From an uncultured virus (IMG/VR IMGVR_UViG_3300035698_013592) (taxonomy: Duplodnaviria > Heunggongvirae > Uroviricota > Caudoviricetes), in the IMG/VR virus record IMGVR_UViG_3300035698_013592: a stretch of DNA of 64,000 bases; one strand, written 5' to 3'. The first letter of the stretch is position 1. Every line of letters starts with the position of its first letter. Under the pieces are notes generated by a model. That model was not told the DNA's origin, made no database searches, and saw only the letters and a program-made list of their open reading frames with translations. A program made the position numbers and the translations under genes. Positions 28,483-64,000 of this stretch are shown here, piece by piece.

Positions 28483-28484
28483 TT

Positions 28485-29823: not shown

Positions 29824-29905
29824 GTTAGTAACAGGTTACAGATATTCTTGTGTGGACGGCGCGAACTCGCGTGTCGTCCATTTTGTTTGTTCTAAGGAGA
29901 AACCG

Positions 29906-32001: not shown

Positions 32002-32762
32002 TTACCGCAGTCATCCCCATCAGGCAGACAGAAGTACATAACAGGTCGTGGGATAGGCTACAGATGGGCATTGTGTCCTTACGGCGATTCGTACCAGCCG
32101 TACACGAGATCTTTGTCGTTGACAGCGGCTCAGAAGAGCCATGGGCTTCACAGCTGATTGATATCTGCAAAGATTTCAACGTTACGCTTTGGCGCCTGGA
32201 TGGCCTTGATCACTGGAACAAGTGCAAGACCATGAATGCGGCGATAAAGAAGGCGACGATGCCGTACATCATGCAATTCGACGTGGACATGATCGTTACT
32301 ACACCCTACGTCAACCAGGCTATCGCAGATCATCTAGGCTCAAACATCTTCTTGACGTTCCTCATCCACAATTTATGCCATCCGATGACGGTGGACCGCA
32401 TGAGTACAGAGCCCTGCGTGCAGCTACATGACTGGTGTATTCCGCACAGCAAGCTCCGGTCGGGTGGTCGGTCTACAGGTGGCATTCAGATCTTTTACAA
32501 AGATTGGTTTGAGAAGGTTCAGGGGTATGACGAGGAATACTCGCTATGGGGACGTGAAGATGATGATATGGTGAAGCGAGCTGGGCTGGATGGGATCGAG
32601 CACATCCACGATAAGACGATCGTATTTCACCTTGGCCATAAGGTGCCGCCAAAGCCGATTGAGCAAAAGCGTGCAAATGAGGAGCGTTATAAGAGACTTG
32701 ATACCGTCGTACGAAACGACCCAGCAACGTGGGGCGGCATGCCCCTGAGGAGACTAACATGA
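31998..32762 (+). CDS. Glycosyltransferase (GT2 with GT7-like C-terminus)
   Basis: VVDSGS, FDVDM, GYDEEYSLWGREDDD. Confidence 0.85.
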   Translation: MITAVIPIRQTEVHNRSWDRLQMGIVSLRRFVPAVHEIFVVDSGSEEPWASQLIDICKDFNVTLWRLDGLDHWNKCKTMNAAIKKATMPYIMQFDVDMIVTTPYVNQAIADHLGSNIFLTFLIHNLCHPMTVDRMSTEPCVQLHDWCIPHSKLRSGGRSTGGIQIFYKDWFEKVQGYDEEYSLWGREDDDMVKRAGLDGIEHIHDKTIVFHLGHKVPPKPIEQKRANEERYKRLDTVVRNDPATWGGMPLRRLT

Positions 32763-36251: not shown

Positions 36252-36263
36252 GAGACCGATATT

Positions 36264-42554: not shown

Positions 42555-42920
42555 GGGGGTGAAAGGTATCGACTGGACGTGGCAAATGTAGATTGCGTGT
42601 CGGAGTTGGTCAGATGGCTCCGTTATCAAACTGACCTCACTAAACTAAGTGACGAAGTTCCCATGCTTGCCGCTGCATAGCGGCCCCGACCCAGGCGAGA
42701 TAGCCTTGGTAGCTTGACGTTGGGACCACACAAAGGTTGACGGTCGGAAAGACAACTGACACCTGGAAAGACAGGCACGGAATGGTTACTTCGTGTACCA
42801 CAGAAACTGAGGCTTGCTCGGAATGGGCCTCGCCGTTTTGGCAAATCATCTGAGATACACACGTAGACGTCTGCGTAGAAGCGTTACAGGAACGGAGTTC
42901 GATTCTCCGCACCTCCACCA
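42555..42920 (+). ncRNA. ssrA: tmRNA
   Basis: GGGGGTG/CACCTCC acceptor with G3-U, T arm CGGAG-TTCGATT-CTCCG, 3' ACCA, tag frame ...DEVPMLAAA*. Confidence 0.92.
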
Positions 42921-48408: not shown

Positions 48409-48442
48409 CTCTGTAGACACACATCGTAAATGTGTCTGTAAC

Positions 48443-48476
48443 GGGAGTGGGTTCTTCGGAACCTGCTCCCTTTTTT
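48443..48476 (+). terminator. Rho-independent terminator
   Basis: GGGAGTGGGTTC-TTCG-GAACCTGCTCCC-TTTTTT. Confidence 0.8.
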
Positions 48477-48498
48477 AGTTCAACCCTGGAGGTCACTC

Positions 48499-49452
48499 GT
48501 GGATATTTGGACTCACAGCGGGAATGCTCACGCTGATGAGGTCATGTCGATAGCATTGCTTGTGCTAAAACAAGAAGCGGTGCGCGCTGCGTACCAGCGT
48601 AAAGACCTTGGCATCAGGCGTGTGTCTCAGATCGACGAAGATGAGGTCAAAGATGGTGATTGGGTGCTCGACGTTGGTATGGAACATGACCCGCGTCGTA
48701 ACCGATATGACCATCATCAGCAGCAACCGCCGGTAGACAGCACGTTCAGCCTACTGGCAAAGGAGTACGGACTTCACGACACCCTATCGAGTTGTACTGC
48801 CTGGTACGGACAGATCGTACTGGTGGACATTTACGGCCCGGTGGAGTATCTGCGGACCCTGGGGTTCCAGGATCCAACGATGGAGACTTTCATTCTCATC
48901 TTTTCTACCAGTATCTTCCGCTGGTTCATCAGCAAGTTTGAGCAGCATCCCCTTATGGGGATAGATGTAGCGTTACCCTGGCTCGACGAGCGTATTCGAG
49001 AAGCTCAAGCGCTTCGGCCCAGGGTGGACAAGCTGTTGGATACCATGCAAGTCTTTGGTAATATCGTTGCTTTTCCGTTTGCCAAAACATCTGTAGGCAC
49101 TGGCCTTGCGATTCGTCGGATGGGACGATCCCGGGCTGAGTTCTCGGACTTTGTCATATCCATCATGCCGGATAACCGTGAGACAGGGATGTGGTCGCTC
49201 ATGCGGTTAGATGACGACACAAGGGTGGACATGCATCGCATTGAAGAGTCTGACTTCGTAGAGTTCGTGCATGCCAACGGCTTTCTTGCGAAGGTCAAGT
49301 GTTCTCTACATCAGGCTGTCGCATTCGCAGAACAATCTATAGTGGAGGATGAGGATGTCCGAGGCCGAAAGCAAACCAGATGGGAGCTCGAGCGAAGCGC
49401 CGACGCCGCAGCAACAAGCGGAGACGATTCGAGAGCTGAAGAAGGAACTTGA
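48499..49452 (+). CDS. MYG1-family (DHH) exonuclease
   Basis: THSGNAHADE, LDVG..DP..NRYDHHQ, FVHANGF. Confidence 0.8.
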   Translation: MDIWTHSGNAHADEVMSIALLVLKQEAVRAAYQRKDLGIRRVSQIDEDEVKDGDWVLDVGMEHDPRRNRYDHHQQQPPVDSTFSLLAKEYGLHDTLSSCTAWYGQIVLVDIYGPVEYLRTLGFQDPTMETFILIFSTSIFRWFISKFEQHPLMGIDVALPWLDERIREAQALRPRVDKLLDTMQVFGNIVAFPFAKTSVGTGLAIRRMGRSRAEFSDFVISIMPDNRETGMWSLMRLDDDTRVDMHRIEESDFVEFVHANGFLAKVKCSLHQAVAFAEQSIVEDEDVRGRKQTRWELERSADAAATSGDDSRAEEGT

Positions 49453-49756
49453 GAACACGAAGCAGGAGCTGTACGTGTCGAAGGCGGCACACCAGTCGTT
49501 GGCTCAGGTTATCGCGTCGAAGGATGAGGAGATCGATAAGGACGGCAACCGTAGGCAGGCACTCGCCAGATGGGTGGTTTACTACCACGCCAAGCTCGTG
49601 GGTATTCAGTCAGCTCTAAGGGCTAACTTTGTGCTCTCCTGTGATATCGACCTCAAGTTCGCTGACTTCAAGAGGGAGCCGCCCGATATTGGTGATGCGC
49701 TCCAGCAAGCTGTAGCGGAGGCAGTAGCCGAAGGTCGTCGTGCGAAGCGCCCGTAG
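49349..49756 (+). CDS. Coiled-coil hypothetical protein
   Basis: 135-aa ORF. Confidence 0.5.
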   Translation: MRMSEAESKPDGSSSEAPTPQQQAETIRELKKELENTKQELYVSKAAHQSLAQVIASKDEEIDKDGNRRQALARWVVYYHAKLVGIQSALRANFVLSCDIDLKFADFKREPPDIGDALQQAVAEAVAEGRRAKRP

Positions 49757-50168
49757 GCCCTGCACTCAATGTGCGCGTTGTTGCAATACGGCGCCGTGTC
49801 TCATTCAGGCGCGGTATGAGGAACAGTTACGCGCCACTTGTCGTAATATAGGTGTCAGGTTTCACCGTAAGTGGGAGCTTTGCGTCGTTAGCTGGCCGAC
49901 AAAAAACAAAGTGGATCCATGTATTGCACGTGTCCCAAAGGTGTCGGCAACAGATACGATTCCACGGAGCTTTCACTATAGGCCGCGCTTTCGGCGTGGT
50001 CGATGTCCCTTCCTAACCGATAACAATAAGTGTCGGTTCTTTTATCATGTCGATGGCGACCTTCAGGGTCAGCCTCGAGATTCTACGCTCGCTCAGCGTT
50101 TGGTCGACGCTGGTAAAGGCTGTACGTTTAAGCCTCCTGTCGTACGTCACACGAGCAGCAAGGACTAG
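49740..50168 (+). CDS. CxxCxxCC (YkgJ-like) cysteine-cluster protein
   Basis: CTQCARCC...CPFLTDNNKC. Confidence 0.55.
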   Translation: MRSARRPCTQCARCCNTAPCLIQARYEEQLRATCRNIGVRFHRKWELCVVSWPTKNKVDPCIARVPKVSATDTIPRSFHYRPRFRRGRCPFLTDNNKCRFFYHVDGDLQGQPRDSTLAQRLVDAGKGCTFKPPVVRHTSSKD

Positions 50169-50171
50169 AGC

Positions 50172-50651
50172 GTGATAGACACAGGCCATTATTTGGTCAA
50201 GTGGAGAATCGAAGGAGTTACCCACCATGGCATCGTTGATAACTTTAGTGACGATGCTGAACAGCTTTATGCTTCGGGTACGCTCCTTATCGACGACGCG
50301 ATCTTGCATTTGCAGTACGAGGTACCAGAGGTCGACGTCACGGACGTACAAGTATTTCGGGACCCTCAGGACGAGCATCACGCGTACATTGACGCTGAGT
50401 TTCAGCGTACACTGGCTCACGCACAGTCTCTTCCCGAAGGCCTTAGGCCTGGTAAGCTGATTCGCACTAACGTTGCGGACGGCTACGCCTGGTACGTCGT
50501 CACCAAGGTAACGCGTAAGTACGCGTATATCGAGTGGCGAGGATTTTGCCCTGACCGCTGGTACGATCAGGTTCTTGGATCCGGAGGGCGTTTCGATCGA
50601 GATATTATCGAGAGGCTCGCCCGGCAGTACGAGTTACTTCTTTCCCTGTAG
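50172..50651 (+). CDS. Hypothetical protein
   Basis: 159-aa ORF (VADGYAWYVV). Confidence 0.55.
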   Translation: MIDTGHYLVKWRIEGVTHHGIVDNFSDDAEQLYASGTLLIDDAILHLQYEVPEVDVTDVQVFRDPQDEHHAYIDAEFQRTLAHAQSLPEGLRPGKLIRTNVADGYAWYVVTKVTRKYAYIEWRGFCPDRWYDQVLGSGGRFDRDIIERLARQYELLLSL

Positions 50652-50684
50652 GTCAACCCCCACGCCCTTTTACGAGGAAAACAG

Positions 50685-51044
50685 ATGAGAGTCAGAGTTT
50701 ACCCGCTGGCCGCCAGCCCCATGGACGTTGAACTTCCCGACGACGCACAGGGCGTCACCGTCAAGCACGTATTCTCGCAGCCCGGCACCGGCCGTGTCTT
50801 CGGCGACGAAGAGAACACCATCATGGGCGTCATCCAAGCCCGCTACGGCGCCTTTGAGCGGTACGGCACCGTGCATGTCAACGGCTCGCCCGCCGACCTC
50901 GGCACCATCCTGGAAGACGGCGCCAACATTATGCTGGTCCCCCGCGTCGAAGGCGGCAACCCTGCCGACAGTGGCCGCAGCGACCGCAGTGGCCGCAGAG
51001 GGTTCAAGTACTTCTTGCTGGCGCTGTTTGGCGTCAGGGTGTAG
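50685..51044 (+). CDS. Ubiquitin-like (MoaD/ThiS beta-grasp) protein with GG motif and C-terminal extension
   Basis: VHVNGSPADLGTILEDGANIMLVPRVEGG followed by 28 further residues. Confidence 0.75.
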   Translation: MRVRVYPLAASPMDVELPDDAQGVTVKHVFSQPGTGRVFGDEENTIMGVIQARYGAFERYGTVHVNGSPADLGTILEDGANIMLVPRVEGGNPADSGRSDRSGRRGFKYFLLALFGVRV

Positions 51045-51058
51045 CATCAACGCGTTTG

Positions 51059-51094
51059 GAGCCCCGGTCGATGCTGGCCGGGGCTCTTCCTTTT
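51059..51094 (+). terminator. Hairpin/terminator between the Ubl and E2 genes
   Basis: GAGCCCCGGTC...GGCCGGGGCTC-TTCCTTTT. Confidence 0.6.
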
Positions 51095-51111
51095 CCTGGA
51101 GACTTCAGTAA

Positions 51112-52635
51112 ATGGAAGTGACTGTCGAAGCTGCAAACATTCCTATTTCCCCCGAGGCGATTGTCCCTCCGCTATACTTCATGTCTCATCAGCTGAATAA
51201 ACCGGTGAGGGTGAAGTCGTGGAGTGATGATCTAACCAAAGCGGAATGTATCGATACGAGTGAGATCGTTGTTTGCTTTACCGATAACCAGACCCTGTCC
51301 TGTGCGAAGAGCATGGCGGCTAGCCTCGGCGGTTATAAGGCTGTTGTTGCCGATGACTCCCCTGAAGGAGTGGGGTGGGCGCCGGGCATCGCCGTCAGTA
51401 ACGCGTTGCTACTGTCTAACGACATGGTGAAAACACAATCTCACTTAGCTGCGGCCGTACGCGTAGCAATTCCCTTTTTGGCTCAGCTGAAGCATAAGAC
51501 GCCTCGCGTACTGACGAATGCGTTTATTCGCCAAGTGCGTCATGGGTTTGAGGCCCATTACGAACATGCCCGCGATTTACACCGTCTGGGAGTTGAAAGG
51601 GCAAAGGAGGGGCTTAACTCCGCGCTGTCTCAAGTGGAAGAATACCGTCGTCAGGTACTCGGGGAGCAGCGGCTATACGACGCCTGTACCATTAGTCAGG
51701 ATCGTCTCGTGAATGGTAAGGTTCGTATGGCTGCCCACAAACTGGCTAACTTGCAGGCAATGGGCCTGTATAGGTATATCCATTTCAGCTCAAACTCGCT
51801 GATTGCAAGAACGAAGCACATTGATATCCAGTGGCAAGGGTATGCAATCCCTATGGGTATTTTCGAAGCGCGTATCTCCTTTGACGCTGGTAGCATTCAG
51901 GTTGTGCCCGTTGATATCTTGCACAACAAGCCTGAAGGCTACCCACATCCGCATATCACGCACAATGGAAACGTCTGTTGGGGTACGGCTAGCCCTGCCG
52001 TCTCCCGAGCTCTTTCTGAGATGCAGTGGGCAGATGCGCTGATCTATGCTCATGCCTTGCTGCAGTCCTATGAGCCCAGCAACCCGTACGTCAAGATCTC
52101 TCTCTTCTCTACAGCGGAAAAAGCTGTTCCACAGGATGTCCTCAACAGTCAAGACGATGAAGATAGTGACCCCTGTGAAGAGTGTGACGAGCGTAATTCG
52201 CCCTATTGCATCTTTGACTGCGAGTACAACGAAGGTATGTACGGCGTCAGCGACTGTTGTGATCATCGGTCGGTGTTCTGCTACACGGAATGCTCACGTA
52301 ATGGAAATTCGTGCGATATTTCCCCCTGTGACGACTGTGCGCCCCCACGCTTGCTCAACGTTTGCGCTGCATGCGAGTACAACGAAGCTTTTGATCTTGT
52401 TAACATCTGTGAGGAGTGCGATGCCGGAGAATACAAAAACGACTGTGACGCCTGTGAGCACAGAGAAGCCGTTGAACACGCCATCTCAATCGGCGCAACC
52501 GACTTCCGGTCAATCGACGAGCGACCTGCAGAAGACGACGACGACGGGGAAGCTAATGACAGCGGCACAGAAGTGGCAGAAGCATCAGGCGATGCCGAAG
52601 GCGCCCAAGAAGCCAACACTTCCACAGAAGCCTGA
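51112..52635 (+). CDS. Prokaryotic E2-like conjugating enzyme with coiled coil and Cys-rich tail
   Basis: YPHPHITHNGNVCWG (HP-x-I...C, E2-like active site); many C-terminal CxxC. Confidence 0.65.
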   Translation: MEVTVEAANIPISPEAIVPPLYFMSHQLNKPVRVKSWSDDLTKAECIDTSEIVVCFTDNQTLSCAKSMAASLGGYKAVVADDSPEGVGWAPGIAVSNALLLSNDMVKTQSHLAAAVRVAIPFLAQLKHKTPRVLTNAFIRQVRHGFEAHYEHARDLHRLGVERAKEGLNSALSQVEEYRRQVLGEQRLYDACTISQDRLVNGKVRMAAHKLANLQAMGLYRYIHFSSNSLIARTKHIDIQWQGYAIPMGIFEARISFDAGSIQVVPVDILHNKPEGYPHPHITHNGNVCWGTASPAVSRALSEMQWADALIYAHALLQSYEPSNPYVKISLFSTAEKAVPQDVLNSQDDEDSDPCEECDERNSPYCIFDCEYNEGMYGVSDCCDHRSVFCYTECSRNGNSCDISPCDDCAPPRLLNVCAACEYNEAFDLVNICEECDAGEYKNDCDACEHREAVEHAISIGATDFRSIDERPAEDDDDGEANDSGTEVAEASGDAEGAQEANTSTEA

Positions 52636-52666
52636 TACGGGCTTCTTAGCGTATGGTGGTGGAGTC

Positions 52667-53809
52667 GTGTCTGATTCACCTGTCGAAATCACCATAATGC
52701 AACAGGCTTACCAGAAGATCTGTGCTTACACCAGCGCTGGCAACAGCGTTGAGATCAGCACACTAGGCCTTGTTGATGTTATCCCTCATGCGAACAGTGT
52801 CACGGAGTTGCGTATCGACGATATGTTCCTCCTCAAGCAAGTGGGATTCAGCGCAGGTACAGAGATGGACCCCGGCGCTATCGCTGACGTCATGATGGAA
52901 ATGGTCCAAGCTGGCAAGGATCCGTCGCGCATTCGCTGTTGGCATCATTCGCACAGCGAAATGGGCGTATTCTGGTCCGGCACCGATCATCAAACCGCTG
53001 AGCGTATCTGCGCTGAGTGGCTTGTCTGTCTCGTTACGAACGTCAAGGGAGACATGCTCGCGCGCCTTGACGTCAATCAGCCCTTCCCGCTCACGATCGA
53101 CAAAGTGCCCGTCCGTGTGATATTGGACGGCGAGGACGACGTGTGGGATGAATGTCAGAGTGAAGTAATTTCAAAGGTCAAAGAGACCGTCTATGCCGGT
53201 GCAACTCTCCACGGAGGTAATGTGTGGGGTGGCGTGGCTGTAGGCGGCTACTATGGCTACGGCGGAGCAGCGGTTGGAATGCCTGGTCCGCGAGACATGT
53301 TTGATGACGTACATGGAGACGGATTTACGGTGTTCGATGAAGTTGGCAGAACCACCGGAGAACATCCTTACGCCTCCCTAACCGCCATCGAACAAGCGGA
53401 CATGATGCCCGAAGATGTGAAGCTTTACTGTCCGTTCTGTGAGGAGTTTCATGAAGTTGATACCCTTTGCGATGCCCTCAGCAACTGTGGACCGTTGAGG
53501 AACAAGGAGATCATCAGCATCATGGCGCAAGAGATGGATCACCGAGGTATCCTTTGGTGCCCAGATTGTTGTGGTCAAGGTGGGGGCGAATACGCTTACT
53601 GCGCGGCCTGCCGCGATTACGGGTATCTTTCGGATAATGACTTCACCGAGCTCATATCTGGTGTTGCTACGGTGAATCCTAGAATGTGCCCCATCGTAGA
53701 CGACGACGATGAGAAGAAACCCGTCATAGCTAAGGTCGAAGTGAAAAAAGACGGGGAAGACACGGACGTTCTTGAGGTCACGGATATGGACGGGCTCCCC
53801 AATGACTGA
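52667..53809 (+). CDS. JAB/MPN+ metallo-isopeptidase (start uncertain)
   Basis: VEISTLG (Glu), WHHSHSEMGVFWSGTD (HxH-x7-S-x2-D). Confidence 0.8.
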   Translation: MSDSPVEITIMQQAYQKICAYTSAGNSVEISTLGLVDVIPHANSVTELRIDDMFLLKQVGFSAGTEMDPGAIADVMMEMVQAGKDPSRIRCWHHSHSEMGVFWSGTDHQTAERICAEWLVCLVTNVKGDMLARLDVNQPFPLTIDKVPVRVILDGEDDVWDECQSEVISKVKETVYAGATLHGGNVWGGVAVGGYYGYGGAAVGMPGPRDMFDDVHGDGFTVFDEVGRTTGEHPYASLTAIEQADMMPEDVKLYCPFCEEFHEVDTLCDALSNCGPLRNKEIISIMAQEMDHRGILWCPDCCGQGGGEYAYCAACRDYGYLSDNDFTELISGVATVNPRMCPIVDDDDEKKPVIAKVEVKKDGEDTDVLEVTDMDGLPND

Positions 53810-54491
53810 GAGCTCCGAAGCTGTGGTCGATGAAACCCGCGTCTCGTACCTTCGTCAGCTTGATATTTGTCCGCCCGACGTGCTTCAGTTCCCGATCACA
53901 GTGATCGGGGCTGGCGCCATTGGATCTGCCGTCGTTCTCGCCATATCGAAGATGGGATGCCAAAACATCACCGTCTTCGACCATGACACTCTGGAAGAGC
54001 ACAATGTGCCCAACCAGATCTGTCTAGCGGCGGAGATAGGACATAGTAAGGTCGATGCTCTCGATGCATTGACAAGGCAGCTGTGCGGCTATGGACTCCA
54101 AAACGCTAGGGCTCGCAAGTATGTGGGTCAACCGGTAGAGGGAGTACTCGTACTTGCTGTGGACACCATGGATACCCGACTTGACATTTGGAACTGGGTT
54201 CGTGGCTCACGCCGTAAGCCGGACCTCCTCATTGACGCCCGCATGGGCGCCGAGGTAGGACGTATACACTCAGCTCACCTCGACAGTGCGATTGAGATGG
54301 AGAACTACGAGAAGAACCTCTACCCGAGCAGCGAAGCCATCGCGCTTCCTTGCTCCGCACGTTCTATCGTGTTCTGCCCCATCACCTTAGGTGGTATCGT
54401 TGCCGCGCTCATTAAGAGACATGCGATGGACCAGCCGTTACCTAAGGACGTCATGATTGACATGGTGAACCTCAACGTGATGAGCTTTTGA
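53802..54491 (+). CDS. ThiF/E1-like activating enzyme
   Basis: RQLD, VIGAGAIGS, FDHDTLEEHN.PNQ, KVDAL, AVDTM, DARMG, PCSARS. Confidence 0.85.
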   Translation: MTESSEAVVDETRVSYLRQLDICPPDVLQFPITVIGAGAIGSAVVLAISKMGCQNITVFDHDTLEEHNVPNQICLAAEIGHSKVDALDALTRQLCGYGLQNARARKYVGQPVEGVLVLAVDTMDTRLDIWNWVRGSRRKPDLLIDARMGAEVGRIHSAHLDSAIEMENYEKNLYPSSEAIALPCSARSIVFCPITLGGIVAALIKRHAMDQPLPKDVMIDMVNLNVMSF

Positions 54492-54574
54492 GCTCAACAG
54501 TTACATGGAGGGGGGCCCTTGAGGGTCTCCCTCCACTCATTCCTTTCCTTTAGCTGCCCAGAGGAGGAAACTCA

Positions 54575-55420
54575 GTGCCAACAGGATACACCACGCAACT
54601 CGAAGACACAGGTTATGACCTGCGTGCCTGGTTCCTTCAACGCTTGCCGTTAGCCTTCGCCATGTTCGTTCACCTGCGTGACACATGTACTGATGGATGG
54701 TCATCGGCGAAGATGAAGAGAAGCATGGAGGAAGCCAGGTCGAATCGGATCGAAGTAGCCAGAGCAAGGCTTGCGGAGCAACGGGAGGAGTGCATCCTCT
54801 TTCATAACCGGACGCTGGACGAGTGGCGTGAAGAGCTCTTCCGTTCAATGAAGGTCAACTACGAGGCGGAAAAGACCTACCGAGAGGGCGAGCAGGCTGA
54901 GATTAACGGCTATCTTGCCTCGTATGCAGCTGTCAGTCGGCTCTTGGCGGAAGCACCCACGTATGAAGACCCGGAAGTCGTCGGTTACGGCAACATCATT
55001 CAGGCTTTCCTCGACTTTGCCCAGACTCAGCTGTATGAGGGCATGCCTTTCTACGCCAAAGACCTTCTGGACGGTACAGTCAGCACCCGCCGCCCTGCGG
55101 AGCTTCCCTCTACCATAATGGATATCCACAGAGATATCTTGTCCGATCACATCGCGGACAGGGTCGAAAAGGCTGATCGTATCTTGGACTTCAGACAAAA
55201 AGACTACGACAAAGCGTGTTCTACTCTGAAGGACGGCGCACGTATGTTCGATGAGTGGGTTCAATGGGTAGAGGAGAACGTATTGCCCGGCCCGCCCCCT
55301 CCTGCTGATCTCGGATCGGATCCTTCGGCGTACCTTGAGCTCATGGACACTATCGACACCGTACTCGAGAAGCCCATCTACATCAAACCCGTCTTGGTTG
55401 AGGGGGTATGCATTGACTGA
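54575..55420 (+). CDS. Hypothetical protein (MPTGYT N-terminus)
   Basis: GAGGAGG RBS; 281 aa. Confidence 0.6.
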   Translation: MPTGYTTQLEDTGYDLRAWFLQRLPLAFAMFVHLRDTCTDGWSSAKMKRSMEEARSNRIEVARARLAEQREECILFHNRTLDEWREELFRSMKVNYEAEKTYREGEQAEINGYLASYAAVSRLLAEAPTYEDPEVVGYGNIIQAFLDFAQTQLYEGMPFYAKDLLDGTVSTRRPAELPSTIMDIHRDILSDHIADRVEKADRILDFRQKDYDKACSTLKDGARMFDEWVQWVEENVLPGPPPPADLGSDPSAYLELMDTIDTVLEKPIYIKPVLVEGVCID

Positions 55421-56177
55421 GTACAACCTCAATCTCCACAAGTCTGGGCACATCCTCAGTCTCCCGGCGCTTGAGCAGTTACCTCAAGTAGCTCAGGCAG
55501 ATGTAGACGGTAACCTGATCATCCACCTAGGGTTCCATGCTTTCGGCCGTACGTATTACTGTGCGTCCTACCGCGACAACGCCTTCTGGTGTTGGGTTGA
55601 GGAAAATAACAGGGGCTACGAGAAGCATGTGACTGAGAGGTACCTCATGAGTGACCCTGACCACTACATGATTCACATCCATCGGCCAACACCCATCAAC
55701 CTCTTGGCGCCGCATGCTGTGCGTGAGGGTGAATTACTCCGTGAAGTAGCTGTTTGTCACGACTGTGGAGCCTTGGAGGGTGCGCTACACCACTCAGGCT
55801 GTGACATGGAGCGTTGTCCCTTCTGCGGTGGTCAGTTGATCAGTTGTGACTGTGTCTACAAGCTGTGGGGTCTTTATGACACAGAGAAGTACACAGAGGC
55901 CACGTCCTTTCTACCCCGACACATCTACGAGAAAGGCCTCAACGAGTTACAGTCAGAGACGTGGGATGGGATGCTGCGAGCTAAGGGTCTGATCCCCTAC
56001 ATCCGGTATCCCAACCTCTGTTACTACTGTGGAATGAAGTGGCCGCCCATGTTCCAAGTCTCTGATGAGGAGTGGAACCGCTACATCGAGCCATGCGCAC
56101 GCAGTAAGATGATCTGCCAGGTATGCTACACGCGTATCAAGCAACTCATCGATGCTGCTAAAGAACCCGAAGAGTAA
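55335..56177 (+). CDS. Cys-rich hypothetical protein (true start probably ~55413)
   Basis: CHDCG..H..GCDMERCPFCGGQLISCDC. Confidence 0.55.
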   Translation: MSSWTLSTPYSRSPSTSNPSWLRGYALTEYNLNLHKSGHILSLPALEQLPQVAQADVDGNLIIHLGFHAFGRTYYCASYRDNAFWCWVEENNRGYEKHVTERYLMSDPDHYMIHIHRPTPINLLAPHAVREGELLREVAVCHDCGALEGALHHSGCDMERCPFCGGQLISCDCVYKLWGLYDTEKYTEATSFLPRHIYEKGLNELQSETWDGMLRAKGLIPYIRYPNLCYYCGMKWPPMFQVSDEEWNRYIEPCARSKMICQVCYTRIKQLIDAAKEPEE

Positions 56178-56715
56178 ACGTTACTATTACTTGAATATGG
56201 GTGACCGGTGAAACTCGGGATAACAACCCCAGAGGTGATCTCATGTCACTTGCAACTTAGGCCCATCTGCCACGGTAGACTGGACCGCGAAGGCCACTCC
56301 CCCCACACCCAAGGAGGAGCAGCCTGACTTTCGTTATGCTCTGCAAGTATGGAGGCCCAAGAGAGGGCAGCCCAGCCCTGCAAAGGAAATGACGTAAATG
56401 GCTTGTAGGAAAGAGCTTAGAGACACAGTGGCATATTTCCACGGATAAACCACCGTACTCATTCTTTCTTTGGCCATGTCATGGATTGTCCTCTCAGGCC
56501 TCTCTTGCGTGTGTCGTAGCGGGTACCAGAGCATGTTTACATCGCGGTACGTTGCGGTAGATATGCGGTACATCTGGTGTTGTTAGGTAGTAACGCGTTG
56601 GTATCTTTACATGTTTCTGTGTAGACACGGCGCAGGTTGTCGTGTATCATACGGTTGAGGTCGCTAAGGATGTAGGAGACTCAAGCGACCTCACAGCTAA
56701 AGAAAGGAGGATGGT

Positions 56716-57081
56716 GTGAGTGATTCACCCATCAACCCGTTTGATGACAAAGTACCAGACAACTTGATCTCTGCGGACATCGGTGACTTTACCATCCTGA
56801 TAGACGGGGATCACCTGGAACAGCGGATCGCTACGCTCAGGGCGTGGTTCGAAGAGGGTCCGCCGGAAGAGTGGACGTTTACGCAAATGCTCTCCGTTGC
56901 GGTGACTGCCACATCTGTCGGCCTGATCAGTCAAGGAGTTCCCCCTCACGTTGCCCGAAGAACCGTGATGCACCCGCTCTCGATGTATCGTATTGCCTGT
57001 AGCATGATCCGTGATAAAGAAAGGATCGTAAGACAGGCACATTCGTTGCGTGAGCCACTGGAGGACGATGACAATGGGTGA
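56716..57081 (+). CDS. Hypothetical protein
   Basis: AAGGAGG RBS. Confidence 0.55.
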   Translation: MSDSPINPFDDKVPDNLISADIGDFTILIDGDHLEQRIATLRAWFEEGPPEEWTFTQMLSVAVTATSVGLISQGVPPHVARRTVMHPLSMYRIACSMIRDKERIVRQAHSLREPLEDDDNG

Positions 57082-57751
57082 GTATACTCCCGAAGCAGCC
57101 AAAGGGATGGAAAAGATAGCGGGCATCTTGAAGTTTAACGCTGAGCGCCCGTTTGCTGACGTACAGCCTGAGGATATCCCGCTTCTGAGCGAGTTGGGTG
57201 TCAACTCCGACGAGATGTTGATTAGTATGCTCTCAGATATCTCTGACGACCCGGTGCTGCCTCAGTTACTCCGAGAAGCGGTAGCAAAATCCAAAGGGAC
57301 AGCGCCGAGCGTAGGAGGCTGTTACTCTAGCGCACCGCTCTGCCCAAACTGTGGCTCGCCTAAGACATCCGGCGATCAGGAAGTGCCGGATGGGTACGGG
57401 GATGAGGACGAGATGGATGGCCCCGCAGACGACGACGTAGAAGGTAGGCGACTGTTGGGTGAGGCCCTCAAGGTTGCACATAGTTACCACGAGGGAGGCC
57501 TGAAGCATCTGACAGAGAAAGACAAGGAAGATGTGATGGCCCACATACTGATCGCCGTGGTCTGTGAAGCGGGGATGAACTCGCAAACGACCGTATCGTT
57601 GGCCACGCTGGGTGCTTTTCGTGATCGGGCGCGGTTCTTGCTCGACACGGAGACGAAAGATGCACACCGTGCTATTGACGCCTGGCTTATCGCGCTGTGG
57701 AAACAACACGGTCACCGCTACGAAGATCTTTGTGGAGACAAACAAGGATGA
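57050..57751 (+). CDS. Hypothetical protein (true start probably downstream)
   Basis: 233-aa ORF. Confidence 0.55.
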   Translation: MSHWRTMTMGEYTPEAAKGMEKIAGILKFNAERPFADVQPEDIPLLSELGVNSDEMLISMLSDISDDPVLPQLLREAVAKSKGTAPSVGGCYSSAPLCPNCGSPKTSGDQEVPDGYGDEDEMDGPADDDVEGRRLLGEALKVAHSYHEGGLKHLTEKDKEDVMAHILIAVVCEAGMNSQTTVSLATLGAFRDRARFLLDTETKDAHRAIDAWLIALWKQHGHRYEDLCGDKQG

Positions 57752-58350
57752 CAGCTAACATCATTAGCTTTACCGCCATCGTGACCATAGCGTTCTCTGT
57801 CTGGCGCTGCTGTCGGTCGATGAGGGTCATGCGCAATTCGATTGACATGTGGCGTGAGACAACGGAGGCCAACGGTTGTGAGTTCAGTGCGTGGGTTAGG
57901 AACTCCATCGTTACGGATAGGCAAGTGGCGCTGGACATCAACGAATTGCGAGGCATCATTGCTAGTATGGCGGAGCAGGCCAGGAATAGCTTTGGCGCGG
58001 CTGAAGCTCTCAGCATACTCGCTGTAAACAGGTTCGTTGAGCAGACGGACTGGATACAGCTGAAGGCGCAGAAGCTGTTCCTCATCAACTATGTTGACGA
58101 CAACATACACGCACGAGGCATACTTCATTTCCTCGATGCGTTGCAGGACATGTTGGTTGATGGCGTCGGCATACCCCAAGAGACGATCTTTGGGCCGTTG
58201 GACGATGATGAAAACGCGAATCTCTCAGAGGAGATGACCGACGAAGCAATCGACAAACAGTCGATGGACAAGGGCCGAACTCACACCATAGCAGAGCGTT
58301 TCGGCAGGGCCAAAGTTGAAGAAGACCAAACCGAAGCCGGGCCGGTTTAG
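57697..58350 (+). CDS. Hypothetical membrane-anchored protein
   Basis: Hydrophobic IISFTAIVTIAFSVW; likely start at MTANI. Confidence 0.5.
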   Translation: METTRSPLRRSLWRQTRMTANIISFTAIVTIAFSVWRCCRSMRVMRNSIDMWRETTEANGCEFSAWVRNSIVTDRQVALDINELRGIIASMAEQARNSFGAAEALSILAVNRFVEQTDWIQLKAQKLFLINYVDDNIHARGILHFLDALQDMLVDGVGIPQETIFGPLDDDENANLSEEMTDEAIDKQSMDKGRTHTIAERFGRAKVEEDQTEAGPV

Positions 58351-58674
58351 GACTCGGCATGTACCACGTGTGACGAAGGTTGAAGGTAGAGGCTATGTAT
58401 AACTTGCAGTCGAGAGCTCAATCGCCTGGCCCTCCCCTGTTGGACGAGAGCCACAGCGAGCTGAGTGCGTTGGTATCACTTCTCAGTGAGGATCTGTGTC
58501 GTAGTATGTCCCAGTACTTCTCTAAGGAGGAGTTCGACTGGAAGACATTTGCACAGGAACCACAAGTGAGACGGTATATCGGCATGTGGCTAGCCAAGCA
58601 CCCGGATAGGGCGTTGGCACGAGCTGTCATTCTGTCTGCGGCATAGTTCTACGTACAGCAAGCGAACCGTATAG

Positions 58675-58702
58675 GAGCCGTCCCTCTTCGGAGGGGCGGC
58701 TC
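58675..58702 (+). terminator. UUCG-capped hairpin upstream of the RAMP locus
   Basis: GAGCCGTCCCTC-TTCG-GAGGGGCGGCTC. Confidence 0.55.
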
Positions 58703-58848
58703 ATCTTGTTACGAGGCCTTCGGGGTCAGGCTTTTCTTTAGCACTCGCCTGTGACGCGTTACTATACCTTGAACCCTGCGGCTACCCTGTTGAGTGGCCG
58801 CGACCTCCACCCGTTGGTAGCGGGTATCTTTACGAAGGGAGTACGAGC

Positions 58849-59631
58849 ATGGAGTACACGCAAGCAGAACTGGACACGCTGTTGGAGGCCGAACGCTGCA
58901 AGGCCACGATCCGCTGCAGGATGCTCCGGCCTTTGGCTGGTGGGCAGCCTGCGGGCAGGGAGGGCGTCGAAGCGTTCGTGCATTATCAGTGCAAGATCGA
59001 CCCAGAGTCCGAAGAAGGTCAGGCTGCCGTCAACCGTATCCTCAAGGATGAGATCGGCGAGCGGGAGACAACCCCGGACGGTGGCGAAGTGAACGAAGCC
59101 GAGAGCTACGGCATCAACGTGATCCGTCGCACCGAACTCGGCCCGTACATTGGCCACCACCAGCTGAAGGCTATGCTCAAGCAGGCGGCGTCTCGCCTTG
59201 GCCTATTCAAAAAGAAGATAGGCAGCAAAGGCGATCTCGTCGAGCTCGGTACCGTCAGTGCCGTCGGGCGTTCCCTGGCTGACCCCGCGCGTCCGTGGGA
59301 GGTGTACCTGTACAAGGTCGACTCCGGCGGCCCGGACGACAACGAGGAGTGCTTCGCTCCGGCGGACACTCACTTCGACAGGCTTCAGGGCAAGGTCAGC
59401 ACTCCTGCTGGGATGAAGAGTATCCAGCATGACACAGAAGTGGCTGAGGAAAGCACGCAGTTCCACTTCGAGCTTCGCTGGCCCACCAAGAAGTTGAAGG
59501 AGGAGGACATGGCGTTGGTCATCGCGGCCGCAACGCAGATCGGCATCGGGTCTTGCCTGTCGCTCGGGTACGGCCGGTTTGAGGTGATGCTGATGACGGT
59601 CGGCGAGCCCCCTGTAGTGGTGGTCGGATAG
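58849..59631 (+). CDS. Stand-alone RAMP/Cas7-like (Csm3-like fold) RNA-binding protein
   Basis: N-terminal strand IRCRMLRPLAGG, PYIGHHQLKAMLKQAA (cf. PxIPGSSLKGxLR), TQFHFELRW, C-terminal Gly-rich loop GIGSCLSLGYGRFEV; no other cas genes in the window. Confidence 0.75.
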   Translation: MEYTQAELDTLLEAERCKATIRCRMLRPLAGGQPAGREGVEAFVHYQCKIDPESEEGQAAVNRILKDEIGERETTPDGGEVNEAESYGINVIRRTELGPYIGHHQLKAMLKQAASRLGLFKKKIGSKGDLVELGTVSAVGRSLADPARPWEVYLYKVDSGGPDDNEECFAPADTHFDRLQGKVSTPAGMKSIQHDTEVAEESTQFHFELRWPTKKLKEEDMALVIAAATQIGIGSCLSLGYGRFEVMLMTVGEPPVVVVG

Positions 59632-59636
59632 TCTAA

Positions 59637-59675
59637 GCGTACACCCCGCAGATTAACACTCTGCGGGGTGTATGT
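59637..59675 (+). other. Perfect hairpin between the RAMP gene and the array (leader/processing element)
   Basis: TACACCCCGCAGA-TTAACAC-TCTGCGGGGTGTA; no U-tract. Confidence 0.75.
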
Positions 59676-59685
59676 GTCGTAACCT

Positions 59686-61350
59686 AGCGGCAAAGCAGGG
59701 CGGAGCGTGACAAAGACGTAGCGGCAAAGCACGACAAGGCATGACCGCGCCGGACTTAGCGGCAAGTCATGGCGCCACGGTACGCTACCTAGAGGCAAAG
59801 CTGCACATTACGGCACAACGCTGTACCTAGCGGCGTGGCCCTACGACACGACACACTACGAAGCGGCATTACGGGACAGCACCAGACCTCACGGAGCGGC
59901 GCAACAAGACATGGCTGTACCACACAAAGCGGTGCAACCAGACATGACCTTACGGTATGGAGCGGCAGGACGGTACGAGACGCAACAGCATGGAGCGGCG
60001 AAACGGAACCAAGCCATACGCTACAGCGCGGCCTCGCCTGTCCCCACCCGACGCAGCGGCAACATAACACAAAACAACACGGAGAGGCACAACAAAACTC
60101 AACACAGCGGCGGAACCCGACGTTACTGAGCTTAACCCGACGCAGCGGCAGAACAAGGCGGGACGGAACAAGACGGAGCGGTATGACATCACGCCCCTCG
60201 ACTCAGCGGCGGAGCTGAACTGAACGTCAACGGAGCGGCAATACGAGGCAGATCGAGACTGAGCAGAACGCAGCGGCAAAGCTGAACTGACCGTTACGGG
60301 ACAAAGCGGCAACACAAAACAAAACGACACGGAGCGGCGAAACCAGGCATGCCTCGACTCAGCGGCGATACGAGACGAAACGGAGCTAAACGTAACGTAG
60401 CGGCTACACAGGACAAGACTATACACATCTCAGCCTCACGAGGCGGCATGACGAAATAGAGCTGTACAGCACGGAGCGGCGAGACATCATAGTACTTCAC
60501 CGTAGCGGCGTGGCAGGGCGAAACTAGACAAAGCGGCAAGGCTCGACGGTCCCGGACAAAACGCAGCGGCAAGTCAGAACAACACAGCACGCCACAAAGC
60601 GGCAGGACAACGCGGAACTCCACGCAGCGGCACTACGGAACCGGACGCAACGGCAATATAGGACAACCCCAAACTGAGCGGCAGAACATGGCTCCACTCG
60701 ACCGGGCGGCATGACATGACTTCACAGTACGAAGCGGCATAGCTGAACAGAACATCGCGGCATAACAACACAAAACTGGACTAAGCGGTAGTACACCACT
60801 AGACGGCACAGGACCTAGCGGCAAAACAGGACAAGTCAGGACATGACCGGACTTAGCGGCAAGGCCCGACGCCACAAAACTGAACACGGCGGCTATACAT
60901 AGCACAACTCAGCGGCAGGACAGCACACCACTCAGCCTAGCGGTGAGGCCCGACGCTACGAGACGCAGCGGCACAACAAAACTTGACGGAGCATAGCGGC
61001 CTGACGGGGCCGGACCAAACGCTACAAAGCGGCTGAACAGCACCAAACTTGACCCAGCGGCTAGGCAAGACTCAACAATACGGAACATTACAAAGCGGCA
61101 GGGCAGGACTGGACCCAACAACACCTGGCGGCTATACACCGCCTGACGTAACGGGACTAAGCGGCAAAACAGGACCTGACGATACGCAGCGGCAAAACCC
61201 AACTTGACATTACTCAGCGGCAGGACAAGGCTGGACGGGACACGCCCGAACCCTACTAAGCGGCGAAACCAGACGCAACACTGCGGCAGTACAGCACCCA
61301 ACGCTACGCCACAGTACGGTGACACACGACCCGACAGAACACTACTCAAC
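59686..61350 (+). repeat. Non-coding array of ~52-53 units, AGCGGC-(NNN-AC)3-7-NN; candidate guide-RNA array
   Basis: Manual parse, e.g. from 60305: AGCGGC aacac aaaac aaaac gacac gg AGCGGC gaaac caggc atgcc tcgac tc AGCGGC gatac gagac gaaac ggagc taaac gtaac gt; unit lengths 8+5n. Confidence 0.9.
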
Positions 61351-61362
61351 AAGGAGAAACGC

Positions 61363-61602
61363 GTGAGGAAAACTGACGCCAAGGCGTTCGCGGCTATAGA
61401 GGCCTGGATTAGCGAGAAGAATGAGTACAGGCATGCCACTCTGGAGATCGGAGGTAAGAACTTCGAGTGTACCCTACACGACGAGTTCCATGGGCTGCAC
61501 GTACACGAGAGTGGTGCGACACCGTTCTGGGCCGCTAAGGCTGCGATAAAGAAGCACAAGACCATGGCTGCTGAGCAGTGGGGGTTGAAGTGGAGACCTT
61601 AA
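61363..61602 (+). CDS. Small hypothetical protein directly after the array
   Basis: AAGGAG RBS then GTG (MRKTDAKAF...). Confidence 0.55.
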   Translation: MRKTDAKAFAAIEAWISEKNEYRHATLEIGGKNFECTLHDEFHGLHVHESGATPFWAAKAAIKKHKTMAAEQWGLKWRP

Positions 61603-61617
61603 CGAGAGGAGGTACCT

Positions 61618-62658
61618 ATGATCTTTGACATGCTGTGCAGGCTGCCAAAGCTGATCGAGCGCTCAAATGAACCACTGGCTCAGAGCGTGGACGTGCGTAC
61701 GCTCCGGGGAGCGCTAAAGCGTTCGAAGTTGTTGCTTGTCCCTCCCCTCTTTATTGGGAAGGAGGATAAGGATTGGAACTCACTCCCTGCCAACACAGTA
61801 GCAGAGTTCTTGCCTCCGTTCCCGGTTTCAGCGGTTGAGACTCCTTTTAATCTCACGATCTTCGATGCTTCGGGACGAATCCCCTTCGATTTTCAAGGAG
61901 ATAAGCAGCCAGAGTACGTGGCGCCGGGCACACCAGGTCTTCTTCATCGCTGGGGGTATGTTTCCTGCGCTCGTATGGCTCAGTGGATGGTGGACGAGCA
62001 GGAGGCTGATGGGGTTCTACCTGGCTTCAATGACCTGGATGTCGAGGCAGACTTACGGGCTGGGGTAGAAATTCACTTTGCCAACTTTGGGTTTATGCAG
62101 GTCTTAGGGTCTGAACCGACAGAGACTGGACGAGTGATGTTGGACGTTACGGGTATCTCGTCTCTCTCCATTCCGTTCTCTAAAGACCGAGTGTACTACT
62201 TTAACCTTGACCCTGAACAGCAGGATTTCAAAGAGGGGTCTGTTGACTCCGCTAAAGATCGTGTGCAGCGTTCCCTAGACGGTATGTGTCTAAAGCTACG
62301 GGACTTGACAGAGCTCAACGCTCCCGACAAGTTTATCCTTGAGACCACGCCGATACTGAGCCCTAAGGCGGAGACGCGCTTGTGTCGTAGTGAGCAGAAG
62401 GTTGGTCACATCAGGCGATCGACCGAGCGCCCTGTCTACACGATACTGAAGCCGCACGACATTCGTAAGAAGATGGGTGTCTCAACCCCCACAGGGAGGA
62501 AGATAGGCTCGCACGAGCGACGAGGGCACCCTCGTACGTATCGCAGTGCCGTATTCAAGAACATGAAGGGCAAGACCGTGTGGATTGAGTCGACGTGGGT
62601 CGGCTGCTCCGAGAAGATCGAAGGCAACAAGCGGTACAAGGTACTGCTGGACAAATGA
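61618..62658 (+). CDS. Hypothetical phage protein with HxRRGH motif
   Basis: GGAGG RBS; SHERRGHPRTY...VWIESTWVG. Confidence 0.6.
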   Translation: MIFDMLCRLPKLIERSNEPLAQSVDVRTLRGALKRSKLLLVPPLFIGKEDKDWNSLPANTVAEFLPPFPVSAVETPFNLTIFDASGRIPFDFQGDKQPEYVAPGTPGLLHRWGYVSCARMAQWMVDEQEADGVLPGFNDLDVEADLRAGVEIHFANFGFMQVLGSEPTETGRVMLDVTGISSLSIPFSKDRVYYFNLDPEQQDFKEGSVDSAKDRVQRSLDGMCLKLRDLTELNAPDKFILETTPILSPKAETRLCRSEQKVGHIRRSTERPVYTILKPHDIRKKMGVSTPTGRKIGSHERRGHPRTYRSAVFKNMKGKTVWIESTWVGCSEKIEGNKRYKVLLDK

Positions 62659-63128
62659 GGAGGACGCCGATGCTGAACTGGAGTATTAAGCCTCACCCGT
62701 GGTTCCAGGATGTTGTGCGGTGGTCGCTTCAGAGAGTGTGTGTGGAGTTGCAGATACCAAAATGTATCAACTCGACGCCGTTCTCCGACACTTTGGGGCT
62801 CGACCCAGTAAGTGACTCTGCGCTTAACTGCATTTGTGCTGAGCTTCTGCGCGGATCGGAGCACGCACTGATGCATAAGCCTACTGGATACCAGTTTCTC
62901 GTTCTTGACCGCGTGTTGCGGTGGTCGCTCAGTGAGTGCGAGCAGGTCGCGGATGGTGCGATAGCTCGTATTCGTGATCGCTACTTCTGGGACAGAGACT
63001 ACGAACAGTACTGTGGCGAGTACCCGCTTTATAACGACCTTACGGTGGGGATAAGTGGCGAGGGGCCGAACAAAAACCACAACGACCCTGCCGAAGAGTT
63101 GAGCAAGCTGCTCTACTCTGACGTATGA
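62595..63128 (+). CDS. Hypothetical protein (true start probably downstream)
   Basis: 177-aa ORF. Confidence 0.5.
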   Translation: MGRLLREDRRQQAVQGTAGQMRRTPMLNWSIKPHPWFQDVVRWSLQRVCVELQIPKCINSTPFSDTLGLDPVSDSALNCICAELLRGSEHALMHKPTGYQFLVLDRVLRWSLSECEQVADGAIARIRDRYFWDRDYEQYCGEYPLYNDLTVGISGEGPNKNHNDPAEELSKLLYSDV

Positions 63129-63141
63129 AAGGAGATGCACG

Positions 63142-63573
63142 ATGGCCGTAGTGTATTCGTATGCAGGGTGGGGTCTCAAGCTACCCCATAGTGAGTTGAC
63201 GGTCCGGCGTAGCCACCCAGCCTGTAAGCATGACTTCCCTTCAGGTAGCAACTTCTGCCCAGAGTGCGGGACGAAGAGCATATGGGCGAGCGAGGTACTT
63301 CGCTGTGGCGTGAATTTGGTCGCCCAGGAGTACAACTCGCTGCAGCTCATCTCAGGGTATAAGTTTGGGGAGGACAAATACGACGTATTCATCGGTATCT
63401 TTGACTCCATCGGTATCTTTGACTCCATGCCTGACTGTACGCTGCCGAAGAATGCTTACGAGGCTGTTACGGAGAATGGGCTCGGAGGCAAACACATTCG
63501 TGATGAGATCAGCGATGAACTACGGGCGTTAGGCGAGTGGGGTTTCTGGCTCTTCACGGTCTGGAAACCATAA
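63142..63573 (+). CDS. Zinc-ribbon hypothetical protein
   Basis: AAGGAG RBS; CKH...NFCPECG. Confidence 0.6.
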   Translation: MAVVYSYAGWGLKLPHSELTVRRSHPACKHDFPSGSNFCPECGTKSIWASEVLRCGVNLVAQEYNSLQLISGYKFGEDKYDVFIGIFDSIGIFDSMPDCTLPKNAYEAVTENGLGGKHIRDEISDELRALGEWGFWLFTVWKP

Positions 63574-63601
63574 CCGAGGGCAACACTAGAGGAGACACAG
63601 G

Positions 63602-64000
63602 ATGTCAACATCAGTAATTTCGTACATCGGGTGGGGCTACAAGCTACCCAAGAGTGCACTGACAACAATACGTACCTCCCCGGGTTGCGGGCACGACGAG
63701 GTCGCCGAAGGCAACAAGTTCTGCCCGGAGTGTGGCAACAAGGGACCCTGCGAACAGGAGGTACCCGTAGACGGCGTGGACATGGACGATGGGATGTACA
63801 AAGGTAGCCTGCAGATCGTTGTTGGGCAGGGCTTTGGATATGACAACGATGACGTATTCATCGGTATCTTCGAGGCTATCAAGTCTGACGGCAACGCTAC
63901 CTCGCCAGAGAACCTCTGGAGCCTGGGTAGGGGTGACAACGGGCGTGAAAGATGCGAGCAGATTGCGGCCGTAGTTACCAACGAGCTGGCCGAAAAGGGT
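63602..64000 (+). CDS. Paralog of the preceding gene, truncated by the window end
   Basis: MSTSVISYIGWGYKLP...KFCPECG...DVFIGIF. Confidence 0.6.
   Translation, partial: MSTSVISYIGWGYKLPKSALTTIRTSPGCGHDEVAEGNKFCPECGNKGPCEQEVPVDGVDMDDGMYKGSLQIVVGQGFGYDNDDVFIGIFEAIKSDGNATSPENLWSLGRGDNGRERCEQIAAVVTNELAEKG

Follow-up and report, generated by a model that had tools for sequence, protein, structure and literature searches.

A punctuated pentanucleotide array beside a predicted Cas7-like RAMP gene: a likely VIPR-type system in a large phage genome

The DNA analysed here, a stretch of 64,000 nucleotides (nt) from an uncultured virus of the class Caudoviricetes (IMG/VR record IMGVR_UViG_3300035698_013592; hereafter the window), raises the following question: why does it carry, at 59686-61350, a long tract in which two nearly fixed bases alternate with three free ones, and what reads this tract? 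Here, we demonstrate that the tract belongs to a conserved, co-oriented gene-array pair with a 5-nt register, a 3-nt GGC stutter that closes the units and a turnover by whole units. The gene encodes a predicted RAMP protein, P0001, and the array can be read as a string of about 51 units of three to eight pentamers, which are putative mini-guides. We consider it likely that the locus is a VIPR-type system of a large salt-lake phage. It is best filed under VIPR, in a little-characterised branch whose repeats have two fixed and three free bases.

Grammar of the array

The tract at 59686-61350 is a highly regular and strand-asymmetric array, and it is the only sustained period-5 tract of the window. 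On the + strand, its unit can be written (NNN-R-Y)n, closed by NNAGC+GGC (N, any base; R, purine; Y, pyrimidine). The punctuated part (59686..61287, + strand) comprises about 51 units and extends from the first AGCGGC (59686-59691) to the end of the last boundary at 61287. It is followed by a tail (61288..61350, + strand) of about 12 more NNNAC-like pentamers, which has no closing boundary and reaches AAGGAG (61351-61356), the ribosome-binding site of the following gene. Base identity in the array peaks at lags 5 (0.429) and 10 (0.399), against 0.20-0.25 at neighbouring lags, with additional peaks at lags 23, 28, 33 and 38 (0.40-0.46); in a control stretch of the window, no lag stands out (0.23-0.275). 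This autocorrelation and the positional logo given below bear out the period of five bases read by eye in the initial annotation of this DNA.

Splitting at GGY boundaries gave 51 units, 48 of which have a length of 5n+3: one of 18 nt, five of 23 nt, 17 of 28 nt, 16 of 33 nt, six of 38 nt, two of 43 nt and one of 53 nt, the single 18-nt and 53-nt units being probably mis-split. The other three have one extra base (34, 29 and 29 nt), in agreement with the three or so 1-nt slips annotated initially. The regular units contain 272 pentamers, three to eight per unit; the manual count had given about 52-53 units and about 250 pentamers. The boundary hexamer is AGCGGC in 37 cases out of 51, AGCGGT in four, GGCGGC in four and CGCGGC in two; AGAGGC, AACGGC, TGCGGC and CACGGT occur once each, the last probably through mis-splitting. 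All the variants previously listed for the NNAGC+GGC boundary were thus recovered. The array holds 38 of the 58 copies of AGCGGC present in the window.

Information content, computed on internal pentamers, differs sharply between positions. Positions 1, 2 and 3 are near-random (0.14, 0.06 and 0.11 bits), whereas position 4 carries 0.98 bits (A 0.78, G 0.16) and position 5 carries 1.78 bits (C 0.97), which upholds the description of the array as NNN triplets placed between fixed AC dinucleotides. Furthermore, 58 of the 64 possible triplets are seen, for an expectation of 57.1 +/- 2.3 if the positions were free. Tandem Repeats Finder recovers the array as fragments only and finds no direct repeat of 23-50 nt in it, the sole repeated element being a motif of 6-8 nt. 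Paralogous units within the array are few (6 of 47, forming three pairs) and the remainder are unique.

Pieces of the array are covered at at least 99% identity, with neither indels nor joints, by contigs from four public DNA runs. Since these contigs match it in this way, the array is not an assembly artefact. In line with the weak structure that the initial annotation had anticipated for the A/C-rich strand, a 601-nt piece of the array (60000-60600) folds less well than 20 out of 20 dinucleotide shuffles on either strand (z of +2.36 on the + strand and +3.43 on the - strand).

The RAMP gene and its recurrent arrays

The P0001 gene (58849..59631, + strand, 260 amino acids) ends 55 nt ahead of the array and encodes a protein that AlphaFold2 and Foldseek place with Cas7/Csm3-type RAMPs. 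The AlphaFold2 model, built from an alignment of 33 homologues, has a pLDDT of 89.8. Used as a Foldseek query, it retrieves 218 PDB matches at E<=1e-3, the best being to type VII Cas7, type III-A Csm3 and type IV Csf2, and VIA-align gives Z scores of 11.9 and 11.5 against Csm3. Near its C-terminus, the protein has a glycine-rich loop, GIGSCLSLGYGRF, over which PADLOC reports weak Cmr6 matches. Neither Pfam nor PHROG has a match to P0001, and the sequence profile of its family yields only noise against PDB sequences (E 0.81). Among the open reading frames (ORFs) scanned across the window, Pfam, PADLOC and PHROGs detect no other cas gene, including cas1, cas2, cas5, cas6, cas10 and a nuclease partner, and the P0001 ORF is the only RAMP copy in the window. 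Since the structural matches come without other cas genes, P0001 is, as far as its model goes, a stand-alone Cas7-like RAMP.

The family of this protein includes 95 word-indexed homologues, and its profile recovers 659 representative clusters at E<=1e-3, 101 of them at E<=1e-30. Isolate phages gave only noise in a tblastn search with P0001 (E 9) and no match in a megablast search with 57000-63900. Ten relatives are carried by IMG/VR viral contigs, where an alignment-based scan recovered relatives and a single-protein scan found none. We fetched 51 related loci, four viral and 47 metagenomic. In 43 of these 51 loci, GCGGY motifs form one or more clusters in which the spacing is mostly 5n+3, and clusters of at least six motifs are always located on the strand of the gene. 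Five of the remaining eight loci have period-5 tracts; the three of these that were read all have variant boundaries, and one of them is AT-rich, with NNNAT pentamers and AGCAGT boundaries. The last three are cut at the 5' end of the gene and have no array downstream.

The grammar is shared as well. When the window and 40 loci are pooled, 561 of 731 boundary intervals are of 5n+3, and the logo is that of the window: 0.04, 0.00 and 0.10 bits at positions 1-3, A 0.745 and G 0.166 at position 4, C 0.865 and T 0.129 at position 5. This pattern of fixed positions 4-5 and free positions 1-3 is maintained between loci that have only 33-61% identity at the protein level. Moreover, a more distant group of proteins (26-58% identity to its own query) has NNNAC arrays immediately 3' of the gene in five of six viral loci. 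Arrays start at a median of 56 nt past the stop codon of the gene (1-14 nt in six loci) and end at a median of 73 nt before its start codon. In L026, L054 and L055, the first boundary directly adjoins the stop codon or shares bases with it.

Apart from the RAMP gene, none of the genes at window positions 48001-64000 has a counterpart in the 51 related loci (blastp, 1e-4). Ten non-redundant loci, though not the window, encode a small helical protein (76-128 amino acids) directly upstream of the array: L001 (5841-6071), L003 (6858-7190), L004 (7212-7523), L016 (1687-1989), L027, L028, L032, L035, L038 and L047. It belongs to no Pfam family and has a zinc-ribbon tail in L003; it may be an accessory protein in this branch of VIPR. 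Among candidate accessory proteins, Pfam at E<=1 yields only weak zinc-ribbon matches, on one protein of a locus other than the window. In L048, the gene that follows the RAMP gene holds at 600-960 about 20 tandem 18-nt repeats, GGCGACGGGGTGAAGCTC-like, and encodes a protein with a six-residue repeat.

Whole units are gained and lost in the arrays, at a pace that far exceeds the divergence of the flanking genes. L013 and L014 have most units in common, in the same order, with gains and losses of whole units. L010 and L013, whose gene regions are 87.5% identical, have only about 4 of 32 units in common; L009 and L010 are 97% identical in the gene region and their arrays align over 79 nt only; L040 and L041 have flanks that are 90-94% identical and arrays that cannot be aligned. 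In L002, three near-identical units follow one another at 2620-2760 and another unit recurs about 280 nt apart (2573/2855), which indicates that units can arise through local duplication. Fixed anchors, free bases between them and cassette turnover are what would be expected of an address list and not of a decaying microsatellite.

Relation to VIPR and alternative readings

According to the text of its first description, VIPR associates a lone phage-encoded RAMP (Vipr, about 20 kDa) with vrRNAs that consist of 9-16 copies of YNNGG and of a structured tail; double-stranded DNA is recognised through pairing of the NN bases, every third target base being skipped (10.64898/2026.04.26.720920). The same text mentions seven types, the alternative repeats NNNGG, YNNNG and NNNNG, 'staggered' arrays, where the end of one vrRNA is the beginning of the next, and arrays interspersed with hammerheads (10.64898/2026.04.26.720920). 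In the text of the companion paper, one Vipr protomer binds each 5-nt repeat; in SUSP1 Vipr, H17 and D177 read G1, R138 and W178 read G2, and the pyrimidine pocket includes E71 and M72 (10.64898/2026.04.26.720927). A further report gives 99 period-5 clusters, 21 of them with non-canonical cores, next to Vipr-like folds; these cores include GAC/NN, CAC/NN, WGT/NN and TGH/NN (10.64898/2026.10.21.760802). Figures and data tables aside, the published text contains no targeting rule for repeat variants other than GGY (10.64898/2026.04.26.720920; 10.64898/2026.10.21.760802).

The experimental reference, the type II locus of Escherichia phage SUSP1 (KT454805.2, with vipr on the minus strand at 28474-29061), has YNNGG repeats flanking its 195-amino-acid gene, on the vipr strand. 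Like it, the window locus is phage-encoded and combines a lone small RAMP that has a glycine-rich loop, without other cas genes, with adjoining tandem pentanucleotide repeats that alternate between fixed and hypervariable bases, arrays being possible on either side of the gene. The two proteins also show a distant profile similarity through helix 1 and the G-loop. An intermediate group of proteins connects the families: hhalign relates it to the P0001 family with 100% probability and to the SUSP1 family with 93% probability (E 2.9e-7, 121 columns, from helix 1 to the G-loop). The direct comparison of the P0001 and SUSP1 families reaches 86% probability, over only 60 C-terminal columns. When the ORFs of the window are searched with a hidden Markov model (HMM) of the SUSP1 family, the best match is the P0001 gene (E 0.005). 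Furthermore, NNNAC can be written as NAC/NN, which covers the GAC/NN and CAC/NN named in the text of one report (10.64898/2026.10.21.760802), and its complement is the YNNNG of another in a different phase (10.64898/2026.04.26.720920). As in the 'staggered' VIPR arrays described there, units abut without spacer. Instead of four separate vrRNAs, as in SUSP1, the window array has about 51 units placed head to tail.

By analogy with SUSP1 Vipr, protomers would coat the array-derived RNA, one per five bases, clamp the fixed R-Y pair and leave the variable bases available for gapped pairing; pairing with the DNA of competing mobile elements would silence these elements. The AGCGGC punctuation may be viewed as a 3-nt stutter in the 5-nt register that marks a guide cleavage site or the end of a filament. 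Since two anchors fall 3 nt apart, this stutter would either break the filament or mark cleavage, and the outcome would be about 51 mini-guides of three to eight pentamers.

Several observations weigh against this assignment. The relationship between the P0001 family and SUSP1 Vipr appears distant by sequence, and when each family is searched directly with the HMM of the other, no match is significant at database scale (best E 6). Read on the strand of the gene, the pentamers keep A-C (R-Y) fixed and leave three bases free, which is neither the GGY with two free bases of SUSP1 nor any of the alternatives NNNGG, YNNNG and NNNNG. Units have three to eight pentamers, are closed by AGCGGC and lack a structured 3' tail, whereas the type II vrRNAs of SUSP1 have 9-16 repeats and a pseudoknot tail of about 40 nt. 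P0001 has 260 amino acids against 195, and BLASTP aligns D177 with S235, W178 with C236 and E71/M72 with H104/Q105, so that residues that read G1, G2 and the pyrimidine in SUSP1 are replaced. No neighbour with a domain recognisable by Pfam, which could be an accessory (vap) gene, lies beside the array. None of the nine public runs listed for the stretch is an RNA run. If two bases per pentamer were read, a unit would provide 6-16 bases, which seems little for specific DNA recognition. Lastly, array-to-array homology aside, no pairing rule beat shuffled controls in 0.40-0.45 Mb. Some of these differences can be accommodated. The missing architecture of 9-16 repeats plus tail excludes type II and not VIPR as a whole, since other published VIPR types differ in architecture. 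The replacement of the G-reading residues would also fit a different fixed motif, S235 being invariant in the P0001 family.

The search for targets was made in two ways. Exact matches to windows of 5 or 6 triplets, with 0-3 skipped bases, were counted in 0.40 Mb (the window and the loci, arrays masked) and compared with 20 nucleotide shuffles. There was no excess over shuffles (with five triplets and skip 0, 3 hits for 0.7 expected), and the skip-2 matches correspond to unmasked homologous arrays. The first 150 of the 287 distinct units with at least 6 triplets were also matched over their full length to 0.45 Mb, with skips of 0, 1 and 2; real and shuffled units gave similar mismatch distributions, and the zero-mismatch hits with skip 2 are matches to self or to arrays. 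The proposal made in the initial annotation, that each unit is a non-contiguous guide, therefore stands in part. It fits the published mechanism because the locus matches VIPR (a Vipr RAMP plus a vrRNA of pentamer repeats), and it agrees with the published vrRNA logic, the abutting RAMP gene, the recurrent pairing and the whole-unit turnover. As for the matching itself, no gapped or ungapped model did better than the shuffled controls in the 0.40-0.45 Mb searched.

Pairing rules were also compared by their coding signatures. In a codon-phase test, z stood at +2.0 with a skip of 0 or 3, +1.2 with a skip of 2 and -2.1 with a skip of 1. An initial codon-model test was discarded, as its null broke triplets apart and made every rule look positive. 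With shuffles of whole triplets, contiguous NNN reaches a z of 2.24, attained by 1 of 100 shuffles, and the other eight rules range from -2.4 to +1.4; this is one weak result in nine tests. Contiguous triplets thus seem slightly more coding-like than triplet-shuffled units. A speculative and rather unlikely possibility is that all three variable bases pair with three consecutive target bases, only A-C being flipped out and no target base being skipped, and that the AGCGGC stutter, needing no ribozyme, structured tail or Cas6, divides one long transcript into about 51 mini-guides or determines how long the filament is. If true, this contiguous-NNN reading would provide a second programmable code by which RNA recognises DNA, its arrays being self-punctuating, unlike the published code in which two bases are read and one is skipped.

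The strand of the functional RNA is a second matter within VIPR. We rather favour the A/C-rich strand of the gene itself, co-transcribed with it, because of the tight operon packing and the overlaps with stop codons. The same VIPR-type system could also work with a minus-strand RNA, whose units would be 5'-GCC-GCUNN-(GYNNN)n; this is a serious option, though the less probable one. In the pooled loci, the complement of NNN-R-Y reads G (0.865), then Y (T 0.745, C 0.166), then NNN. The protein would then keep a G-pyrimidine anchor comparable to G2-Y3 of GGY, a strict G followed by a degenerate pyrimidine mirroring that motif. Such a unit is the YNNNG repeat of the published text in another phase (10.64898/2026.04.26.720920), related motifs, WGT/NN and TGH/NN, appear in the text of the later report (10.64898/2026.10.21.760802), and the minus strand likewise avoids structure (z +3.43). 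However, arrays are wedged between genes of the same strand: six loci have an array that starts 1-14 nt past a stop codon, and five have one that ends 25-37 nt short of a start codon. An antisense promoter would have to sit inside a coding region, and a sigma-70 scan finds no promoter-like site on either strand (0 sites). Moreover, sense read-through would yield a complementary RNA, and the repeats of SUSP1 are on the vipr strand.

It is improbable that the array RNA is a scaffold, a store or a decoy that soaks up the phage's own or a rival Vipr-like protein, its variable bases holding no address. Units are short, positions 1-3 look simply unconstrained and no target was found under any rule searched, as this explanation would have it. 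Yet a decoy needs the fixed anchors only: it leaves unexplained the turnover of whole units that outpaces the flanks, as well as the strict 5n+3 structure kept by loci whose proteins are only 33-61% identical, and the coding-like triplets (z 2.24, 1 of 100 shuffles, a weak signal from one of nine tests) speak slightly against it too.

An origin from CRISPR is less probable still. The array would be a CRISPR array in degenerate or miniature form, its repeat reduced to an 8-nt remnant and its spacers 15-35 nt long, served by a relict Cas7. The 5' handle of CRISPR RNAs (crRNAs) is 8 nt long, a length equal to that of NNAGCGGC, and the nearest solved folds of P0001 are those of Cas7/Csm3 from types III, IV and VII. 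These folds (Csm3, Cmr4, Csf2 and type VII Cas7) form the class 1 backbone on crRNA, in which, according to the text of the VIPR papers, each Cas7 subunit contacts a constant number of guide bases, with bases being flipped out (10.64898/2026.04.26.720920; 10.64898/2026.04.26.720927). Unlike that backbone, the window system would have a period of 5 instead of 6 and flipped positions that are fixed in sequence, and it lacks long repeats, adaptation genes and nuclease genes. Indeed, none of cas1, cas2, cas5, cas6, cas10 or a nuclease partner is detected among the scanned ORFs and there is no direct repeat of 23-50 nt. Since the 'spacers' hold a fixed dinucleotide every 5 nt, they could not be copied from arbitrary invader DNA.

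Lastly, a DNA-level repeat lying by chance beside the gene (a decaying pentamer microsatellite, a protein-binding array or an origin-like region) would suit the tandem layout and the strong strand asymmetry (AT skew of 0.556 at 60001-61000), but it is hardly credible, as the adjoining protein has an RNA-binding RAMP fold, the co-oriented pairing recurs in 43 of 51 loci and neutral decay, the very process that the initial annotation had named as fatal to its own proposal, would erode the five positions alike and is ruled out by positions 4-5 being fixed (0.98-1.78 bits) while positions 1-3 are near maximal entropy (0.06-0.14 bits). A TRAP-like, CsrA-like or Rho-loading RNA and a filament packaging signal had also been envisaged; they were dropped given the RAMP fold and the VIPR papers.

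Genomic setting and implications

Between the stop codon of the P0001 gene and the first boundary of the array lies a GC-rich hairpin (59637..59675) with a 16-bp stem and a 7-nt loop. It is the main stem of the 80 nt past the stop codon, for which RNAfold gives -37.1 kcal/mol. It has no U-tract on either strand and is not called by the terminator scan, which reports two terminator-like sites, fewer than the shuffle expectation. Similar hairpins are found in L009/L013 and in L015. Directly 3' of the array, an ORF of 79 amino acids with a GTG start (61363..61602, + strand) belongs to no Pfam family (the best match, E 0.11, is noise) and has no relative in L001-L004 (blastp, 1e-5) or in the 51 related loci (1e-4). 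At Rfam gathering thresholds, no ribozyme is found in or near the array, the sole match being a transfer-messenger RNA (tmRNA).

Judging from its gene content, the window looks like a part of a large phage genome. Nearly all its ORFs are on one strand and few have known families; they include phage-type genes encoding a UvsX-like recombinase, a RuvC-like resolvase and several phage families of unknown function. The tmRNA gene, located inside this apparent phage genome, is full-length (42555-42920, + strand; Rfam 92.9 bits) and ARAGORN predicts a tag peptide of 30 residues. At 46585-49452 (+ strand), a Ro60/TROVE protein with a vWA domain (607 amino acids) is followed by a MYG1-like exonuclease-family protein (317 amino acids); these could be a phage RNA-quality-control pair. 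At 52046-54491 (+ strand), the gene of a 587-amino-acid protein with a weak JAB-like match overlaps that of a 239-amino-acid ThiF/E1-like protein, which matches the E1-E2 models of PADLOC (best E 4e-13). Together, they may form a ubiquitin-like conjugation or counter-defence module.

Furthermore, positions 28903-37877 (+ strand) carry sugar-modification genes: three radical-SAM genes, NeuB, a cytidylyltransferase fused to a sialyltransferase-like domain, a formyltransferase-like protein, a polysaccharide deacetylase and glycosyltransferases. This region looks like a phage-borne pathway for a glycan of the nonulosonic-acid type. Near the end of the window, two adjacent genes (63142-63573 and 63602-64000, + strand) encode small proteins with weak zinc-ribbon matches, and the first contains an exact 18-nt tandem repeat of 2.2 copies at 63390-63428.

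VIPR, an RNA-guided silencing system, was described only in 2026 and its decoding rule is known for the GGY/NN type alone. The locus of the window is a clean and large example of the branch with two fixed and three free bases, with about 51 units beside a confidently folded protein. This branch is large, as the 659 representative clusters at E<=1e-3 indicate. The 731 boundary intervals of the window and the 40 loci thus constitute a data set for the targeting rule and for a 6-nt punctuation used in place of tails or ribozymes. If the rule proves to be the same 'read two, skip one', the locus is one more ordinary entry in the VIPR catalogue. If it differs, these phages would carry a second compact programmable DNA-recognition code.

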